Shown here piece after piece: positions 19,356 through 31,751 of a stretch of DNA of 32,000 nt. This DNA comes from Candidatus Helarchaeota ASGARD archaeon Hel_GB_B (GTDB lineage: Archaea > Asgardarchaeota > Lokiarchaeia > Helarchaeales > HEL-GB-B), in NCBI GenBank assembly GCA_005191425.1, contig SUPR01000028.1, positions 5,690-37,689 on the forward strand, in the 5' to 3' direction. The position numbers and the translations under genes are program-made. Position 1 is the stretch's first letter. The number at the start of each line of letters is the position of its first letter. The notes beneath the pieces are model-generated. The model searched no databases, was not told the DNA's origin, and saw only the letters and a list, made by a program, of their open reading frames with translations.

Positions 19356-19898
19356 TTATTTTACTATTTTATTTGTCATTAAACGTGCTAGATAAATAAA
19401 AGCTTCTAATACATTTGTGCCATCAGCGGCAGAAGTTTCAAAAAATTTTGCATTTACTTTTTCTGCCATTTCTTTTATTTCTTCAGTAGATTTTTTTCTA
19501 ATTTCAGTGAGGTCAATTTTATTAGCAATTAAAACGCGGGGAATATCGCCGGAGTATTTGAGTAAGTCATCAAACCAATGTGGAATATTATTAAATGTTT
19601 CAGGTCTTGTGACATCAAATACAAGTATAGCAGATGAAGCACCTTGATAATACAAATGGCGGACATCTTTCCATTTACTTTGTCCAGCTATGTCCCACAT
19701 TAACAAGCGGATATTATCGCCATTTTCCTGAATTTCCTTTATCACAATATTAGTGCCCAAGGTAGGTTTGTATTCTTTAATAAATTTTTGTTCTGCAAAA
19801 CGATTAATTAGTGATGTTTTACCAACTGCGCCATCACCAATAACTACGACTTTGAATACATATCTATGTTTTGATTTTTCATCCATATTTATAATCAC
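19356..19898 (-). CDS. Rab-like small GTPase
   Basis: G1 GDGAVGKT, G2 YKPT, G3 WDIAGQ, YYQGA, G4 NKID, G5 ETSA; start GTG 19898 (GTGA overlap with upstream stop) or ATG 19886. Confidence 0.93.
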   Translation of the reverse strand: MIINMDEKSKHRYVFKVVVIGDGAVGKTSLINRFAEQKFIKEYKPTLGTNIVIKEIQENGDNIRLLMWDIAGQSKWKDVRHLYYQGASSAILVFDVTRPETFNNIPHWFDDLLKYSGDIPRVLIANKIDLTEIRKKSTEEIKEMAEKVNAKFFETSAADGTNVLEAFIYLARLMTNKIVK

Positions 19899-20494
19899 TC
19901 CTTTAGATATTCCTTTACATCAAGTTTATATTTTTTAACAATTCTAAATTCACAACATTTATCTCCCAATGCAATACATTTGTCTTCTATTACATCATAT
20001 TTTTCTCCTGTTTCGGATTCTTTAATTTTACTTAAAGCACCACCGATAATATGACAAATAGGTTTTCCAGACATTGATTTAAGTCCATAACAAATTGGGC
20101 ATTCATAGACGTCCACTATTTCTAAATCATCTTTCTTAATTAAATCCCATTTGCCTCCAATCCAGTTTTCCAATTTTTTAATCATTACATCTAAAGATAG
20201 CCCAAAAGGAGATAAGTATATCAACCATTTTCGCCCTGCTTCATATAAAATGGCAGAAGTACCAAACCCAAGTAGGACAAACATAGAATTAATTAAAGAA
20301 TGAAAAATATTATAATCAATTTTCTCGTCCATTGAAATTTCATCAGGGGTGTGAGTATGAATATATTTATCTAATTTTGCATATCTCAAAACACTATTTT
20401 TACCATCTTGTCCCATTATATCATTTAATGCCGTAAGTAAAGCATAAAAAACATTCATTGATATCTCTTTTTTCTCCATTGGATTTAAAGTCAT
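19895..20494 (-). CDS. V4R-domain protein (V4R/TRAPP-Bet3 superfamily)
   Basis: ECPIC...PICHIIGGAL...E..CIALGD..CEF is the V4R signature. Confidence 0.85.
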   Translation of the reverse strand: MTLNPMEKKEISMNVFYALLTALNDIMGQDGKNSVLRYAKLDKYIHTHTPDEISMDEKIDYNIFHSLINSMFVLLGFGTSAILYEAGRKWLIYLSPFGLSLDVMIKKLENWIGGKWDLIKKDDLEIVDVYECPICYGLKSMSGKPICHIIGGALSKIKESETGEKYDVIEDKCIALGDKCCEFRIVKKYKLDVKEYLKE

Positions 20495-20638
20495 TAGGCT
20501 AACTCCGTCAAATATTTTTGATATTTACTTAATGCTCATTTAATTTTTAATATTTTTTCATTCCTTAAGATTTCTGGAATTAATGTTTAATAATTTAGTA
20601 GATTATTATAAAAATAATTATAAATAATCTATCTAGAA

Positions 20639-20962
20639 TTGTTTAAACATAAAAATATAAGAACGCATAATTGGACGGAATTAAAATTGGTCAAAATTTG
20701 TAATTTTTGTAAAAATAAAGCCAAACTTGAATGTCAATTTCATAAGAAAATTGCATGTAGAGATCATGCGCTTAAATGTCCTTATTGTCAAAATGTTGTA
20801 TGTATAGATTGTTTTAAAGAGAAAAATTATAGACCTATTTGTCCAGTTTGTAAAAAGGAATTATTAATTTGTCCAAATTGTCTTAAAAATGGTTTGATTT
20901 CTCGTTTACAGCAAGGTACTAATGTTTGTAAAATTTGTGGTTATTCAATCTCATCTAAATAA
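20639..20962 (+). CDS. multi-zinc-finger protein (14 Cys)
   Basis: TTG start; CxxC / CxxH pairs throughout 107 aa. Confidence 0.7.
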   Translation: MFKHKNIRTHNWTELKLVKICNFCKNKAKLECQFHKKIACRDHALKCPYCQNVVCIDCFKEKNYRPICPVCKKELLICPNCLKNGLISRLQQGTNVCKICGYSISSK

Positions 20963-21009
20963 AAATTAAATAGTAAAAATTCTTATTTCAATTTGAATTT
21001 ATTATAAAA

Positions 21010-21966
21010 GTGATGATAATGTTAAAAATAGATCTTAGTTTGGTAAATAAGGTATTAGAGAATCTGATAAATGCATTAACATCAATTCAAGCAGCAATGA
21101 TTTTCGATAATAAGGGAAATTTATTAACATCAATGATGAATAGTACACTTGATGAAGAGGAAATTGGTGGTACTACATCATTAATTTCGTTTATTTCCGA
21201 TAAAATAAAGATCGATTTCGAGACAGGATTATTTCAAAATTCATCTTTAAGTACTGATTATAGAAAGTTTATTTTCAGACAGATTGATGACCTTATTCTT
21301 GTCCTAATTTGTGATTTGAAATCGGATTTGAACATTATAAATCCTTATTCTGATTATGTAGCTACTAAAATTTTAAAAATAAATAAAAATGTTCAAATTG
21401 ACCCGTCTGTCCCGACTTTGGGAAAAATAGAAAGGCCTAAAAGAAAACCTAAGAACGAATATGTGTTTAAAATACTTATATTGGGGGATGCTGGTGTTGG
21501 TAAAACTACAACAACTGTGCGATTTGCCCAAGCATTATTTACCTCAGAATACAAACCTACATTAGGAGTAAATATTGTAAGAAATGAGTTTTGGATGAAT
21601 GATACGGATTTAATTCATTTTTCTATCTGGGACTTAGCTGGACAAGATAGGTGGGCTAGTATGAGAGGAATATATTATTCGGGTGCACAAGGTGCTTTAT
21701 TATTATTTGACACCACAAGATTAGATTCTTTTAGAAATCTTGATAAATGGATTAAAGAAATAAATACAAATACAATTAATATACCAGTAGTGTTAGTTGG
21801 AAATAAAATAGACCTTAAAGATTTAAGAAAAGTATCAAAAGAAGAGGGAATTAGAAAAGCCCAGGAATATGGTTATCGATATATTGAAACTTCAGCTAAA
21901 ACTTCGGAAAATATTAAGGAAACTTTTAAATTACTTGTAAAGGATATGATTAAGGGTAAAATATAA
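21010..21966 (+). CDS. roadblock/LC7-like domain fused to Rab-like GTPase
   Basis: N-terminal IQAAMIFDNKGNLL..., roadblock-type; C-terminal GDAGVGKT, YKPT, WDLAGQ, NKID, ETSA. Confidence 0.88.
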   Translation: MMIMLKIDLSLVNKVLENLINALTSIQAAMIFDNKGNLLTSMMNSTLDEEEIGGTTSLISFISDKIKIDFETGLFQNSSLSTDYRKFIFRQIDDLILVLICDLKSDLNIINPYSDYVATKILKINKNVQIDPSVPTLGKIERPKRKPKNEYVFKILILGDAGVGKTTTTVRFAQALFTSEYKPTLGVNIVRNEFWMNDTDLIHFSIWDLAGQDRWASMRGIYYSGAQGALLLFDTTRLDSFRNLDKWIKEINTNTINIPVVLVGNKIDLKDLRKVSKEEGIRKAQEYGYRYIETSAKTSENIKETFKLLVKDMIKGKI

Positions 21967-24246: not shown

Positions 24247-24687
24247 ATGAATAAAAAAATCGAACCAATGAATGAAATATTAAGAGATCTTGTAAAAACA
24301 ACTCATATATTTCAAGCTGTAATAGTTGATCAAAATGGTTTACCAATTGCCTCGTGGAATGAAAAAAGTGGAAAAATAGAAAATGAATTAGAGAATAAAA
24401 TATCAGCTATTGGTGCTAGCGTTTTTCTTTTATCAGAAAAAACTTCAGAAATTTTTGATCTAGGATTAATGGAGCAAATGATTATAAAGAATAAAAAAGG
24501 AAAAATTGTTATTAAAAATATTAATAGCCAAGCATTAATCATTTGTGTAATGGAAAAGAAAGGTAGCGAAGCTTTAACCATGTTGAAGTTGAAAAATACG
24601 TGTGAAAAATTGAAAAAATTTGAAATATTAAATAGAAAAATTGATAATACACCTAAATCAGATATTTTCATTCCAAATATAGATTAG
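24247..24687 (+). CDS. roadblock/LC7 domain protein
   Basis: ATG at 24247 on plus strand (track label wrong); AVIVDQNGLPIAS...ISAIGAS...EQMIIKNKKGKIVI. Confidence 0.88.
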   Translation: MNKKIEPMNEILRDLVKTTHIFQAVIVDQNGLPIASWNEKSGKIENELENKISAIGASVFLLSEKTSEIFDLGLMEQMIIKNKKGKIVIKNINSQALIICVMEKKGSEALTMLKLKNTCEKLKKFEILNRKIDNTPKSDIFIPNID

Positions 24688-27186: not shown

Positions 27187-28425
27187 TTGAAGAAAAATAG
27201 TATTTATCTATTAATATCAGCGTTTATTATATCGGTCAGTTCTCCAGCCTTCTTTATTTTTATGCTTAATAAAGCTGGAGTATATAATGCGCCATTACTT
27301 GTTTCAATTTATTTTTTACAATCAATTATTTTTTCATATATTTTTGGTAAGGTCTCAGATAGATATAATAAGGATCTTTTATTTATATTAATAGGGATTA
27401 TTTCCTCATCAATTTTATATCTGACCATTTATTTGATTGATAACTTTATTATATTAATAATTATTGCAGCATTAATAGGTATCTCAAATTCCGCTTGGAC
27501 GCCATTAATTATGGCATTATTTTTGAAAATAGAAGATAAAATGGCGTCAGGAAAACAAGCATCATTAATAAATAGTATGTTCAGTTTCGGGTGGGCTGTT
27601 GGGTCTATTATTGGTGGAATAATAGAGCAATTAACTAATTTGAACATGGTTTTTATATTTATGAGCATAATAGGAGGCATAAGTATTATTCCTTTAACAA
27701 AATTAATTACCTCATATAAAACAAATAAAACTAAAGATCAACTTTTTAACAATATAAAAAATAGTAGAGAGTTAAAAGAAAAAAAGTGCTCTATAAAGAA
27801 AATTACAATAAGAGGTCAGGACGAAAATTATAATCAAATTATCATTTTTCTTATTATTTGTATATCTCTGAGATATTTATGTTCTCAAGGGGCTGTTGTT
27901 GGGATCTTACCGAACTATATTCAATATGAATTGATAATTTTACCGGGTTTAAAAGGGTTAATTTTGTCAATAAATATGATTACACAATGTATTTTTATAA
28001 TTCCTTTAGGTTATTTAATAGATAAATTGGGAAAACGCCCGATATTTTTTGTAGGACTTATAGGTTCAGGATTAAATTCGATATTCTATTCAATGGCTCA
28101 TAATATTTGGTTTTTAATACTAAATCAAGTGCTTATTGGTTTTTCCTATTCGGCAATAGTTTCAAGTACAACAGCAATTATTAGAGATATTTCAGATTGT
28201 GATAAATATGGGCAGGGAATGGGAATAAATAATATGGCAAGAAGTGTTGGTGGTATGGTTGGACCATTTTTGGCATTTTTTTTATTGAATTTTAGCTATG
28301 ATTTTGCTTTTCAAATTTTAGGGATTATTGGACTAATTAGTGGATTAATTGCAGTAATTTTTTTAAAGGAGAATAAAATAAATTCAAAATATAGCATAAG
28401 GTTTATAAAAAAATTAGACATTTAG
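27187..28425 (+). CDS. MFS transporter
   Basis: TTG start; motif A twice (GKVSDRYNK, GYLIDKLGKR); about 12 hydrophobic segments. Confidence 0.88.
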   Translation: MKKNSIYLLISAFIISVSSPAFFIFMLNKAGVYNAPLLVSIYFLQSIIFSYIFGKVSDRYNKDLLFILIGIISSSILYLTIYLIDNFIILIIIAALIGISNSAWTPLIMALFLKIEDKMASGKQASLINSMFSFGWAVGSIIGGIIEQLTNLNMVFIFMSIIGGISIIPLTKLITSYKTNKTKDQLFNNIKNSRELKEKKCSIKKITIRGQDENYNQIIIFLIICISLRYLCSQGAVVGILPNYIQYELIILPGLKGLILSINMITQCIFIIPLGYLIDKLGKRPIFFVGLIGSGLNSIFYSMAHNIWFLILNQVLIGFSYSAIVSSTTAIIRDISDCDKYGQGMGINNMARSVGGMVGPFLAFFLLNFSYDFAFQILGIIGLISGLIAVIFLKENKINSKYSIRFIKKLDI

Positions 28426-29280
28426 TTAGTAATTAGTATCTTTACCCAACTTTTTGCGTGCATTCTTTAATTCTTTATCTAATTCACTAAAAGCAAACCA
28501 TGGAATATGCCTTTTTGCCCAATTATGAAATCCAGATGCACCTATAAATATATTAAACTTGTTTTTTGTCATTTTTTTAATAATTATATTTGCAACTTCA
28601 TCAGGTTTCATTAACCCCGCTCTTGCAGATATAATTTTTAATTCTTCAGGTTTAGTTCTATTTTCTTGTTCAAATCCAGGAGTTTCAGTGTCTACAGGAT
28701 AAACAACGGAAATTTTTATGTGATAAGGCTTTAATTCATGTCTTAAACATTCAGATAGACCTACAATCGCGAATTTAGAAGGACAATAAGTGCTATAACC
28801 CATTAAACCTAAAAATCCTGCCTCGGAAGATAGATTAATTATATGACCTGTTTTTTCCTTCATATAATAGGGGAGCAAAGTAAGAATTGGTGCGACTACT
28901 CCATAATAATTTACATCCATTGTTTTTCTAAAATCATCTAATTTTAGGTTTTCAATATAATCTGGAAAAGCTTGACCGACACAATTGAATAGATAATAAG
29001 GAATACCTTTTTTTTCTATAAAATTATCAATTAGTGGTCTTAATTTTTCGATATCAGTGGCATCACAAGAAATCATTTCTACAAATTGTTCATTATTAGA
29101 TTTAAACTCTTCTATATCTTTAACCGCTTTCTTTAATATTTCAACTCTTCTAGCAATTATACAAACGCACCCACCCAATTGGACAACCTTTTTGGCAATA
29201 GATTTACCAATACCTTGAGACCCACCTACGACCATCGCAATTTTTCCATCAAACATATTTTTTTTACCCAAATTTATCAC
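28426..29280 (-). CDS. SDR oxidoreductase, 3-ketodihydrosphingosine reductase (KDSR/Tsc10)-like
   Basis: GGSQGIG, LSSEAG, YCPSK and YPVDTETPGFEQENRTKP; likely start ATG 29256. Confidence 0.85.
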   Translation of the reverse strand: MINLGKKNMFDGKIAMVVGGSQGIGKSIAKKVVQLGGCVCIIARRVEILKKAVKDIEEFKSNNEQFVEMISCDATDIEKLRPLIDNFIEKKGIPYYLFNCVGQAFPDYIENLKLDDFRKTMDVNYYGVVAPILTLLPYYMKEKTGHIINLSSEAGFLGLMGYSTYCPSKFAIVGLSECLRHELKPYHIKISVVYPVDTETPGFEQENRTKPEELKIISARAGLMKPDEVANIIIKKMTKNKFNIFIGASGFHNWAKRHIPWFAFSELDKELKNARKKLGKDTNY

Positions 29281-29352
29281 GCTTAATCAAATTTTTATTT
29301 TAAAGAATTGACCTTTTAGTTATCTTTTATATTAATTATTTTAACTACTTCT

Positions 29353-30369
29353 TTATTTTATTTTTTGTTTTTGATGGTTATACCAAGTTACACTTTTTTT
29401 AATTGCGTTATTAAAATCAATTTTTGGGTCATATCCCAATAATTTTTTAGCTTTATCTGCCTTAAAATACAAATCGAATTTTGCAACTCTTAAGCGGTAA
29501 GTTGTTAATTTAATACCATTTCTTTTTTTGAATAAACGACAAATATTTTCATATAAACTTATTAAAGGGAATACAAGAAAATATGGAAGAGATAATGTGG
29601 GAGTTTTTATGTTTAATTCTTTACACAAATTATCGATAAAATCGTGAAAAGTTACAAATTCAGGTTTATTATCACACATAATAAAGGTTTGACCTGCTGC
29701 CTCTTTTTTTGTTCCGGCTAAAATTAAACCTTCGACCAAATTTTCAACATAAGAATAGCACATCTTTGCTTTACCATGATTTAAAAATGGCATACTTCCA
29801 CTCTCCAAAGTTTTGCACAATTCATAGGTAGTCATCAAATCATTAGGGCCAAAAATTGTAAATCCTGGACGTATTATAACAATTTCTATTTCATTCTTTT
29901 TCTTATTTAATAATTTTTCACATAAAATTTTAGATTTAGTATAAGGCCTTCTTTTATTTGGTGAAATAATTGGAGTACTTTCATCAGCGCCATTAAAGTT
30001 CGAAAATCCATGGACTACAAGGCTAGACATAAAAACGAACCGCTTTACATTATTCTTAATAGCCTCTTCCAAAATATTTTTTGTACCATTGTAATTAACG
30101 TTAAAAATAGATTTATTCCACCAATCGGATGGAATTGCAGCAAGGTGATAAATCAATTCAATATCATTTAAAATATTTTTTAATGTTTCTGGTTTAGTAA
30201 CATCGCCATAAATTAACTGTGTATTTAAATTACTCAAAAACTCTTCATTAGTACCTTTTAAAACTAAGGATATTACATCATGCCCATTTTCCACCAACTT
30301 TTTAACTAAATTACTTCCGATAAAACCATTTGCGCCACTTACAAGAATCTTCATGATAAATTCATCCAC
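29353..30369 (-). CDS. extended SDR, NAD-dependent epimerase/3-beta-HSD-like
   Basis: GANGFIG, HLAA, YTKSK, IRPG..FGP; likely start ATG 30354. Confidence 0.85.
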   Translation of the reverse strand: MDEFIMKILVSGANGFIGSNLVKKLVENGHDVISLVLKGTNEEFLSNLNTQLIYGDVTKPETLKNILNDIELIYHLAAIPSDWWNKSIFNVNYNGTKNILEEAIKNNVKRFVFMSSLVVHGFSNFNGADESTPIISPNKRRPYTKSKILCEKLLNKKKNEIEIVIIRPGFTIFGPNDLMTTYELCKTLESGSMPFLNHGKAKMCYSYVENLVEGLILAGTKKEAAGQTFIMCDNKPEFVTFHDFIDNLCKELNIKTPTLSLPYFLVFPLISLYENICRLFKKRNGIKLTTYRLRVAKFDLYFKADKAKKLLGYDPKIDFNNAIKKSVTWYNHQKQKIK

Positions 30370-30554: not shown

Positions 30555-31751
30555 ATGAAAGAAATGGAGATATTTGGTAAAATGTCAATAACTGATGATA
30601 AAGAAGAAATAATAAAGAAGTACCAAACTGCTGCAAAAGCGATAATTAAAGCAGGTATGATGCCATTTCCGTTAACAAATACATTTATTGAGATCTTAAA
30701 ATATTATTTAGATGAAGAAGATTTGGAATTTATCAAAGCATTTAAAATGAAACAGTCAATGACAATGGAACAATTAAAAAAGAAATTAAAAGATATGTCG
30801 GAAGAGGAGATTGATAGAATAGCTCAGAAATTAGCAAAAAAAGGATTTATATTTAATCAGCCAAGTTCAAAAGGGTTTATAGTTTATAGGCTTATGCCAA
30901 TTGTTATGATAGGGACTTTTGAATATCAATTTATGCAGAACCTTCCAGAAAGTGAAGCCGAACTTAATAGAATAAAAAAAATAGCTGAACTTTATGAGAA
31001 ACTATTAGAAGAACTAGCAGGAAAAATTCAAGAAGGATATGACACAATTGTTCCTGTTTTTGAAAAACAACCATCAACTGATAGAACAGTAACATTACTT
31101 TCAAGTAAAGGCACTAAATCAATTGAAATAAATGAAAAAATGGAAGTACAAGAACAAGTCTTACCTGCCCAAACAATTGAAGACATCATTAATAAATTTG
31201 ATGATATTGCAGTTGGAAACTGTTTCTGCCGGCAATATAGAAAAATGTTGGGTCATACTTGTGAATTAAATGCACCAATGGAAACATGTTTTACATTTGG
31301 TAAATCAGCAAGACATGTAATACAACAAGGATTTGGAAGGAGAGTATCTAAAGAAGAAGCATTAAAAATTATGAAAGAAGCTGAAGAAGCAGGTTTAATA
31401 CATAAAGCATTCCATAATTCTTCAAATATATATAAAGATGAAAATTCAATATGTAATTGTTGCAAAGATTGTTGTGATATTTTTAATTTGTGGAGAATGG
31501 GCGCAACTCCAATAATTACTTCAACAAACTATGTATCACAAATTAATCAAGATATTTGTATTGGGTGTGGGACATGCATCGAACGATGTCCTATGGATAC
31601 AATTTCATTAAATGATGATAATAAAGCAGTAGTAAATGAAAGTCATTGCATAGGATGCGGAATTTGTGCAAGATTTTGCCCTGAAGAAGCAGTAACATTA
31701 AAAGAAGGAATGAGAAGAGTATATATTCCACCTCCTCGATTAGAAACATAA
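30555..31751 (+). CDS. Fe-S protein with N-terminal HTH-like region and C-terminal 2x[4Fe-4S] ferredoxin domain
   Basis: CFCR, C...C..FG, ICNCCKDCC, CIGCGTCIERCP, CIGCGICARFCP. Confidence 0.85.
   Translation: MKEMEIFGKMSITDDKEEIIKKYQTAAKAIIKAGMMPFPLTNTFIEILKYYLDEEDLEFIKAFKMKQSMTMEQLKKKLKDMSEEEIDRIAQKLAKKGFIFNQPSSKGFIVYRLMPIVMIGTFEYQFMQNLPESEAELNRIKKIAELYEKLLEELAGKIQEGYDTIVPVFEKQPSTDRTVTLLSSKGTKSIEINEKMEVQEQVLPAQTIEDIINKFDDIAVGNCFCRQYRKMLGHTCELNAPMETCFTFGKSARHVIQQGFGRRVSKEEALKIMKEAEEAGLIHKAFHNSSNIYKDENSICNCCKDCCDIFNLWRMGATPIITSTNYVSQINQDICIGCGTCIERCPMDTISLNDDNKAVVNESHCIGCGICARFCPEEAVTLKEGMRRVYIPPPRLET

Follow-up and report, generated by a model that had tools for sequence, protein, structure and literature searches.

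It is not yet clear how eukaryotes came to make sphingolipids, and a pair of genes in the Asgard archaeon Candidatus Helarchaeota Hel_GB_B bears on this question: does an Asgard lineage carry an enzyme of this pathway, and what would the enzyme do there? The genes lie in a 32,000-nucleotide stretch of contig SUPR01000028.1 (assembly GCA_005191425.1), which was analyzed as a whole and is called the window here. They encode a 284-aa classical short-chain dehydrogenase/reductase (SDR) that resembles 3-ketodihydrosphingosine reductase (KDSR; Tsc10 in yeast) and a 338-aa extended SDR that resembles 3-beta-hydroxysteroid dehydrogenase (3-beta-HSD). We found that the 284-aa protein adds a new member from an Asgard lineage to a known enzyme family and is encoded in a genome without a detectable serine palmitoyltransferase (SPT). 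The protein is probably an orphan KDSR-type reductase that acts on a long-chain polar lipid, outside any recognizable sphingolipid pathway. Our literature searches found no paper describing an archaeal KDSR, and no Asgard candidate for a step of eukaryotic sphingolipid synthesis is more concrete than this KDSR-like family.

Judged by its sequence, the 284-aa protein belongs to the KDSR/Tsc10 family, as an initial annotation of the window had proposed. Pfam assigns it to adh_short (PF00106, 1.3e-39). An exhaustive HMMER search over 1.84 billion representative proteins gave 473 matches at E<=1e-30; from approximately rank 8 these include 317-367-aa proteins extended at the N terminus by a hydrophobic segment, and named eukaryotic KDSRs lie within approximately the top 70. 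Identity in this search was 41% to the KDSR of Bugula neritina and 42% to the 3-dehydrosphinganine reductase of Dictyostelium purpureum, and BLASTP against the Bugula enzyme gave 40% over 251 residues (E 4e-56), with the motif region included. Cryptococcus TSC10 (8jat) was the second-best sequence match in the PDB (7.6e-23), with the stretch PGF..ENRTKP aligned, and many of the homologues are labeled '3-dehydrosphinganine reductase' in JGI annotation. The AlphaFold2 model of the protein is a Rossmann fold (pLDDT 95), for which Foldseek against the PDB listed generic SDRs only, at near-equal scores and with TSC10 outside the top 50. At the level of fold, SDRs could not be told apart here.

The motifs of the protein fit this assignment. 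The glycine motif GGSQGIG occupies residues 19-25, and strand 2 is followed by the basic pair R44/R45, of which R44 is invariant in 32 family members. An Arg-Arg pair at this position is typical of NADPH-preferring classical SDRs, which suggests that the 284-aa protein also prefers NADPH. The catalytic tetrad is present as N124/S152/Y165/K169; S152, Y165 and K169 are invariant and N124 is at least 90% conserved. These residues match those of characterized KDSRs, the tetrad of yeast Tsc10p being N140/S167/Y180/K184 (PMC6148460). The lid motif PxDTxTPGFxxENxTKP was found in the 284-aa protein and in none of eight SDR paralogues from its own genome. Among the family members sampled, 18 of 26 archaeal, 19 of 29 bacterial and 7 of 12 eukaryotic sequences carry it, and in the Asgard set it is invariant or nearly so. 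Conserved acidic or polar residues of the lid region are D197, T198, T200, E206, K210, P211 and E213.

Eukaryotic KDSRs (KDSR/FVT1 and yeast Tsc10p; EC 1.1.1.102) thus share with the archaeal protein the classical SDR type, the NADPH signature, the Asn-Ser-Tyr-Lys tetrad and the lid motif, and the Bugula and Dictyostelium enzymes are 40-42% identical to it over approximately 250 residues. They differ in being approximately 320-335 aa long and having membrane segments, whereas the archaeal protein has none at its N or C terminus. No hydrophobic segment was found in the 284-aa protein (maximum Kyte-Doolittle 19-residue mean of 1.26), whose glycine motif begins as early as residue 19, so the earlier remark that an N-terminal membrane anchor is missing was correct. 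Such an anchor is dispensable for catalysis, as truncated Tsc10p is active (PMC6148460).

Enzymes of other SDR lineages carry out comparable reactions. The Bacteroides-type KdsR (NCBIfam NF049977, BT_0972-like) and the 3-ketocapnine reductases are likewise classical SDRs that reduce 2-amino-3-keto lipids, and SDRs unrelated at 21-27% identity reduce 3-ketocapnine (PMC11211663). We rejected an assignment of the 284-aa protein to the Bacteroides type: it scores 98.7 bits to NF049977 (97.2 in the genome search) versus a cut-off of 400, which places it in another SDR lineage. A different SDR of the same genome (L009, G000:C137:10622-11410) reaches 163 bits to this model, above the 284-aa protein but still far below the cut-off.

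The genome search that the initial annotation had proposed as a check found no SPT. In the window genome, the KBL model TIGR01822 had no match, compared to matches in 11 of 14 control genomes; the best score to the SPT model NF047600 was 19.9 bits; and the four strong matches to PF00155 are Asp, diaminopimelate (DAP), Met and His aminotransferases. No alpha-oxoamine synthase (AOS) was detected in any of seven genomes of the order (the window genome and six others), including one from the same genus that is 93% complete (G156). With neither AOS nor SPT in these seven genomes, sphingoid-base synthesis, which had been suggested as a possible role, is unlikely in this organism. A search for TLC/Lag1 ceramide synthase (PF03798) also had no match in the window genome but carries little weight, since the control genomes gave none either.

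At the level of the class, 35 of 61 genomes contain the KDSR-like gene and 41 contain an AOS. Eight of the 35 have no AOS, and five of these eight are 95-99% complete. The common Lokiarchaeial AOS is Kbl/BioF-like, with 485 bits to TIGR01825 (cut-off 535.4), and in two families its gene is divergent from that of a GalE-like extended SDR (L044:1498-3819, L048:149-2670). Given the known biology of threonine dehydrogenase (TDH) and KBL, this arrangement looks like a pair of Kbl and SDR-type threonine dehydrogenase for threonine degradation, which suggests that it is not related to sphingolipids.

To place the gene in a wider context, we examined its distribution and neighbors. Within a sample of 151 Asgard genomes (threshold E<=1e-40), the KDSR-like gene is confined to the class Lokiarchaeia and was found in 0 of 123 genomes from other classes; with Dictyostelium KDSR as the query, those classes gave one weak match of 101 bits. 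Closed chromosomes that carry an orthologue include those of Promethearchaeum syntrophicum MK-D1 (52% identity) and Lokiarchaeum ossiferum (50%). Both archaea are in culture, making activity and lipid products directly testable. A scan of species-representative genomes yielded 48 archaeal and 32 bacterial loci, whose neighbors were compared by tblastn within 6 kb. Directly upstream of the KDSR-like gene in 38 of the 48 archaeal loci is a 131-aa gene with four hydrophobic segments (for example, L083:5530-5925 from P. syntrophicum MK-D1, L071:5559-5963 and L096:5555-5965), and in 29 of the 48 a FabG-like SDR lies further upstream of it. No homologue of this membrane protein was detected in the window genome. 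We considered and rejected the idea that it is an ORMDL-like regulator of SPT, as it had no Pfam match even at E<=10. A protein atlas places it only near DUF8058-like clusters from Chloroflexota and Actinomycetota, and complex prediction for the MK-D1 KDSR-like protein with its 131-aa neighbor gave a score of 0.00, which counts neither way. A different context occurs in a basal Helarchaeota lineage (L018:591-7888). There, the KDSR-like gene is divergent from genes for an acyl-CoA dehydrogenase and a class-III aminotransferase, and genes of a ubiquitin-like system (ubiquitin, ThiF/E1, UQ_con/E2 and JAB) are found close by.

The bacterial loci, from Chloroflexota, Actinomycetota/Acidimicrobiia, Spirochaetota, Desulfobacterales, Bryobacterales and others, differ from the archaeal ones in their link to AOS, which was found within 6 kb in 15 of 32 bacterial versus 0 of 48 archaeal loci. 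The reductases that accompany an SPT-like AOS (in Chloroflexota, Acidimicrobiia, Spirochaetota and Bryobacterales) are uncharacterized. They fall in the same clade as the archaeal protein (100/99), are 42-53% identical to it and resemble it in length, soluble form and lid motif. In some cases the AOS is accompanied by an acyl carrier protein (ACP) and acyl ligase or by a polyketide synthase (PKS). A spirochaete, for example, has an AMP-ligase (acyl ligase)/ACP/AOS cluster beside the KDSR-like gene, and in a Logan contig (L052:1-7858) a type I PKS of >2100 aa, an AOS and the KDSR-like reductase overlap start to stop. The AOS of this contig is 99% identical to that of a Bryobacterales locus (L136), and the three genes together suggest an operon for a polyketide-derived amino alcohol. 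One further bacterial KDSR-like gene has a ceramidase as its neighbor. Because these bacterial members are operonic with SPT-like AOS, the AOS-linked enzymes almost certainly reduce a 2-amino-3-keto long-chain base.

Relationships within the family were analyzed with two IQ-TREE runs (LG+C20+F+G4 with posterior mean site frequencies, PMSF) on alignments of 100 and 98 rows, both rooted on genomic SDR paralogues. Bugula and Dictyostelium are the named eukaryotes in these trees, and other sequences were labeled as eukaryotic from their length, N-terminal hydrophobic segment and clade. In the first tree, the eukaryote-type clade (100/96) joins with ten bacterial representatives as its sister group (99/99), named members of which are Terasakiella, Sedimenticola, Nostoc and an Elainellaceae cyanobacterium; the Asgard-bearing clade (99/97) neighbors this combined group of eukaryotes and bacteria at 84/87. 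The second tree, built with named loci, contains a 48-row clade (100/99) of 26 archaeal and 22 bacterial sequences, in which the Helarchaeota lineages, including the branch of the window gene, come first and the bacteria are nested, and the eukaryotes are again sister to the bacterial group (95/94). These results firmly establish that the KDSR family is shared among domains and that the clade of the window gene is an inter-domain mixture. A place among bacterial SDRs remote from eukaryotic KDSR, which the initial annotation had named as evidence against its reading, is only half borne out: the gene does group with bacteria, though at no great distance from eukaryotic KDSR.

In evolutionary terms, the window gene lies near the base of a clade that mixes archaea of the class Lokiarchaeia with bacteria of at least five phyla. 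Although the maximum-likelihood (ML) tree nests the bacteria within the archaea, a tree with all archaeal sequences as one clade cost 32.0 log-likelihood units and was not rejected by the approximately unbiased (AU) test (p-AU 0.10), so we make no claim on the direction of transfer. A KDSR-like sequence from the anaerobic metamonad Chilomastix cuspidata (P0260 of EukProt, 309 aa) was placed at the base of the Asgard-centered clade on a branch of 1.77 and was excluded from the second tree; its placement may reflect lateral transfer, a contaminant or an artifact.

The most far-reaching question is whether eukaryotic KDSR came straight from the Asgard clade, inherited vertically from the archaeal host, with the window gene a surviving relative of the ancestor. 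We regard this as doubtful. Trees that join the eukaryotes to the Asgard-centered clade were not rejected in either data set, with a log-likelihood cost of 27.4 (p-AU 0.062) in the first and 22.3 (p-AU 0.215) in the second, values to be read with the knowledge that the tested groups were defined only once the trees had been inspected and that the bootstrap runs had not fully converged. The lid motif is common to the Asgard-centered clade and eukaryotes and occurs in only one of the eight bacteria that ML sets beside eukaryotes, and the two clades are neighbors at 84/87 in one tree. A 2026 Nature paper moreover reports that eukaryotic sphingolipid metabolism is globally associated with Asgard archaea, though KDSR is not named in its text (PMC12872458). 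Pointing the other way, both ML trees put the eukaryotes beside bacteria with strong support (99/99 and 95/94), the constrained trees are worse by 22-27 log-likelihood units, and the Asgard clade includes bacteria of so many phyla (at least five) that inter-domain transfer must have occurred. The restriction of the gene to one Asgard class, with the single weak match to Dictyostelium KDSR elsewhere in Asgard archaea, also speaks against vertical inheritance. The relevance to the origin of eukaryotic KDSR proposed in the initial annotation is neither borne out nor refuted: ML favors a bacterial sister group, but an Asgard sister group is not rejected. The broad Asgard attribution is tempered by a family that occurs in one class, is mixed with bacteria, lacks a link to SPT and does not form the ML sister group of its eukaryotic counterpart.

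What the enzyme does must be judged from the same comparisons. If it is an orphan KDSR-type reductase, the 284-aa protein, a soluble classical SDR, would use NADPH to reduce the keto group of a polar-headed long-chain 3-keto compound. Hydride would pass from NADPH to the 3-keto group via the Asn-Ser-Tyr-Lys tetrad, with Tyr165 as the acid, the part played by the catalytic Tyr in all classical SDRs. Conservation of the lid motif in lineages without AOS suggests that recognition of a polar-headed long-chain substrate has been kept there. Several points weigh against this assignment. The substrate range of SDRs is notoriously hard to read from sequence, and the strong conservation of the lid motif argues for a sphingoid-type 2-amino-3-ketone as the substrate, the source of which was not found. 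An SPT may also have been missed in the window genome at its completeness of 93.7%. Finally, in the Lokiarchaeon G165 approximately 1 kb separates the KDSR-like gene from an SPT-like AOS (378 bits to NF047600). At that locus (L051, G165:C27, 6251-10124), the SPT-like AOS, a glyoxalase-family gene, the KDSR-like gene and a FabG-like SDR lie within 4 kb; the AOS is the second of its genome, and the glyoxalase-family gene separates it from the KDSR-like gene. This was the only archaeal AOS linkage observed, and it shows that AOS coupling can exist in Asgard genomes. L042 and an ENA contig likewise have a Glyoxalase_4 gene next to the KDSR-like gene.

Under the corresponding alternative, the protein is a genuine 3-ketodihydrosphingosine reductase in an archaeal sphingoid-base pathway, for which the condensing enzyme is missing from the metagenome-assembled genome (MAG) or non-homologous, or the substrate is external, coming from partners or detritus. 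The degree of identity to eukaryotic KDSR (40-42%) with an intact lid motif speaks for this alternative, its nearest bacterial relatives are operonic with SPT-like genes, G165 has its SPT-like AOS close by, and in the window a major facilitator superfamily (MFS) transporter abuts the gene. We nonetheless consider this alternative unlikely, given that AOS is lacking from the window genome, its congener G156 and five further genomes of the order, that none of the 48 archaeal loci has an AOS within 6 kb, and that the common Lokiarchaeial AOS, beside its GalE-like SDR, has the look of threonine degradation. The lack of a TLC-type ceramide synthase match counts in the same direction, though control genomes also gave none. 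So do the lipids of MK-D1, which has an orthologue and yielded only isoprenoid hydrocarbons after ether cleavage; this is weak evidence, as the method would not reveal long-chain bases (PMC7015854). An orphan KDSR-type reductase could also be part of something larger: without SPT and usually in a conserved three-gene unit with a FabG-like SDR and a small four-helix membrane protein, it might mark an undescribed archaeal pathway for a long-chain amino-alcohol or keto-lipid, with the Asgard clade as the stock of eukaryotic KDSR and some bacterial operons having borrowed the reductase. We mention this scenario as speculation that is unlikely to hold.

The second gene of the pair was described in the initial annotation as an extended SDR of the 3-beta-HSD/NSDHL type, and our searches agree. 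The 338-aa protein matches Pfam 3Beta_HSD (PF01073) at 116.2 bits (cut-off 22) and, nearly equally, Epimerase (PF01370) at 112 bits, and its translation contains the GxxGxxG and YxxxK motifs (GANGFIGS and YTKSK). Its PDB matches include the uncharacterized oxidoreductase 3wj7 (1.6e-30) and human NSDHL (6jkg, 1.2e-19). The likeness to 3-beta-HSD/NSDHL, HpnA and OleD extended SDRs lies in the 3Beta_HSD and Epimerase folds and these two motifs; the difference is that the nearest relatives of the 338-aa protein are unnamed Asgard and Bacteroidota proteins (at least 50% identity within Helarchaeota/Promethearchaeia and approximately 45% in Bacteroidota). Scores were far below the equivalog cut-offs for HpnA (TIGR03466, 159.2 versus 367.65 bits), OleD (112.7 versus 580) and SdmB (101.4 versus 600).

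The linkage of the two SDR genes is real but lineage-limited, and it is not a conserved operon. The genes are adjacent in the window genome, in G156 and in the Helarchaeota contig L017, and they share two further short contigs of close relatives. In two more distant metagenomic contigs (L054 and the ENA contig with the Glyoxalase_4 gene) they are linked but rearranged, being convergent and abutting in one case and split by a 174-aa open reading frame (ORF) and an Rce1-like membrane protein in the other. Two genomes (G151 and G167) have both genes on separate contigs, and in three of the same order (G152, G153 and G155) only the first of the pair, the 3-beta-HSD-like gene, is present. By tblastn, the 3-beta-HSD-like gene was found within 6 kb in 0 of the 48 archaeal species-level loci of the KDSR-like gene. 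An Asgard operon for 3-keto-lipid reduction, as proposed from the window, is thus not supported in that form, since adjacency of the two genes is confined to the genus and close relatives. In L054 (7626-9431) and the ENA contig, the gene immediately upstream of the 3-beta-HSD-like gene encodes an Rce1-like (CPBP) membrane protein, which may be a second conserved partner of the 3-beta-HSD-like gene.

Where the two genes are neighbors, their proximity may reflect a shared lipid substrate. One form of this idea is that the two SDRs catalyze successive steps, that their substrate is a sterol-, hopanoid- or polyprenol-like lipid of polycyclic or isoprenoid type, and that the likeness to KDSR reflects ancestry rather than substrate. 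The 3-beta-HSD/NSDHL/HpnA type of the upstream gene, the recurrence of the linkage in three arrangements and the Rce1-like membrane protein beside the 3-beta-HSD-like gene in two contigs would all be in keeping with it. We nevertheless judge it very unlikely: the HpnA, OleD and SdmB scores fall far short of their cut-offs, the two genes do not share a distribution, and the KDSR-like lid motif is kept equally in lineages without a 3-beta-HSD-like neighbor.

The features surrounding the pair are listed in Table 1. The initial annotation had located both ORFs correctly, with the 3-beta-HSD-like gene upstream of the KDSR-like gene in the same orientation across a 72-bp gap, and the peptide that it quoted lies in the 284-aa product. 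The spacer holds the TATA-like TTTAAAATA approximately 20-30 nt before the GTG, which is uninformative at 28% GC. The MFS transporter also adjoins the KDSR-like gene in L017, a contig at 68% identity. The divergently transcribed ferredoxin-domain gene has a 389-aa counterpart in L017 as well; in its product, Fer4 families match residues 328-381 only, and the first 320 aa have Cys-rich stretches and no family match. Both the transporter and the ferredoxin-domain gene are regarded only as syntenic neighbors.

Table 1 The KDSR-like gene and its neighbors, in positions of the window
Feature	Position	Strand	Description
KDSR/Tsc10-family classical SDR	28426-29280	-	284 aa; GTG start; soluble; predicted NADPH-dependent 3-ketoreductase
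Spacer between the two SDR genes	29281-29352	-	72 bp; AT-rich
Extended SDR, 3-beta-HSD/NSDHL/HpnA-like type	29353-30369	-	338 aa; PF01073, PF01370
MFS transporter	27187-28425	+	PF07690, 1.4e-49; convergent, abuts the stop codon of the KDSR-like gene
398-aa protein with C-terminal 2x[4Fe-4S] ferredoxin domain	30555-31751	+	Divergent from the 3-beta-HSD-like gene

Because the clade of the KDSR-like gene contains many bacteria and the MAG (3.54 Mb) has an estimated contamination of 4.9%, the contig could in principle be a bacterial contaminant, and the gene a plain bacterial sphingolipid reductase. This is extremely improbable, and synteny together with the orthologues in the closed P. syntrophicum MK-D1 and L. 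ossiferum genomes effectively refutes it. L017, a Helarchaeota contig of 337 kb, keeps the same gene order (Fer4 protein, 3-beta-HSD-like gene, KDSR-like gene, MFS transporter, RtcB and onward), GC content is even over the window (23-32%), and Asgard hallmark genes surround the locus. On the basis of hallmark genes, gene order and GC, the locus is genuinely Asgard.

Genes assigned by Pfam elsewhere in the window encode RtcB, archease, a Roadblock/LC7 protein, Ras/Roc/Arf-type small GTPases and an XPG/FEN1-type nuclease. At 19356-21966 and 24247-24687, near archease and RtcB, are two Ras/Roc/Arf-type small GTPases, a V4R-domain protein and a Roadblock/LC7 protein, a typical Asgard neighborhood of eukaryotic signature genes. 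One of these small GTPases carries a 150-aa N-terminal extension.

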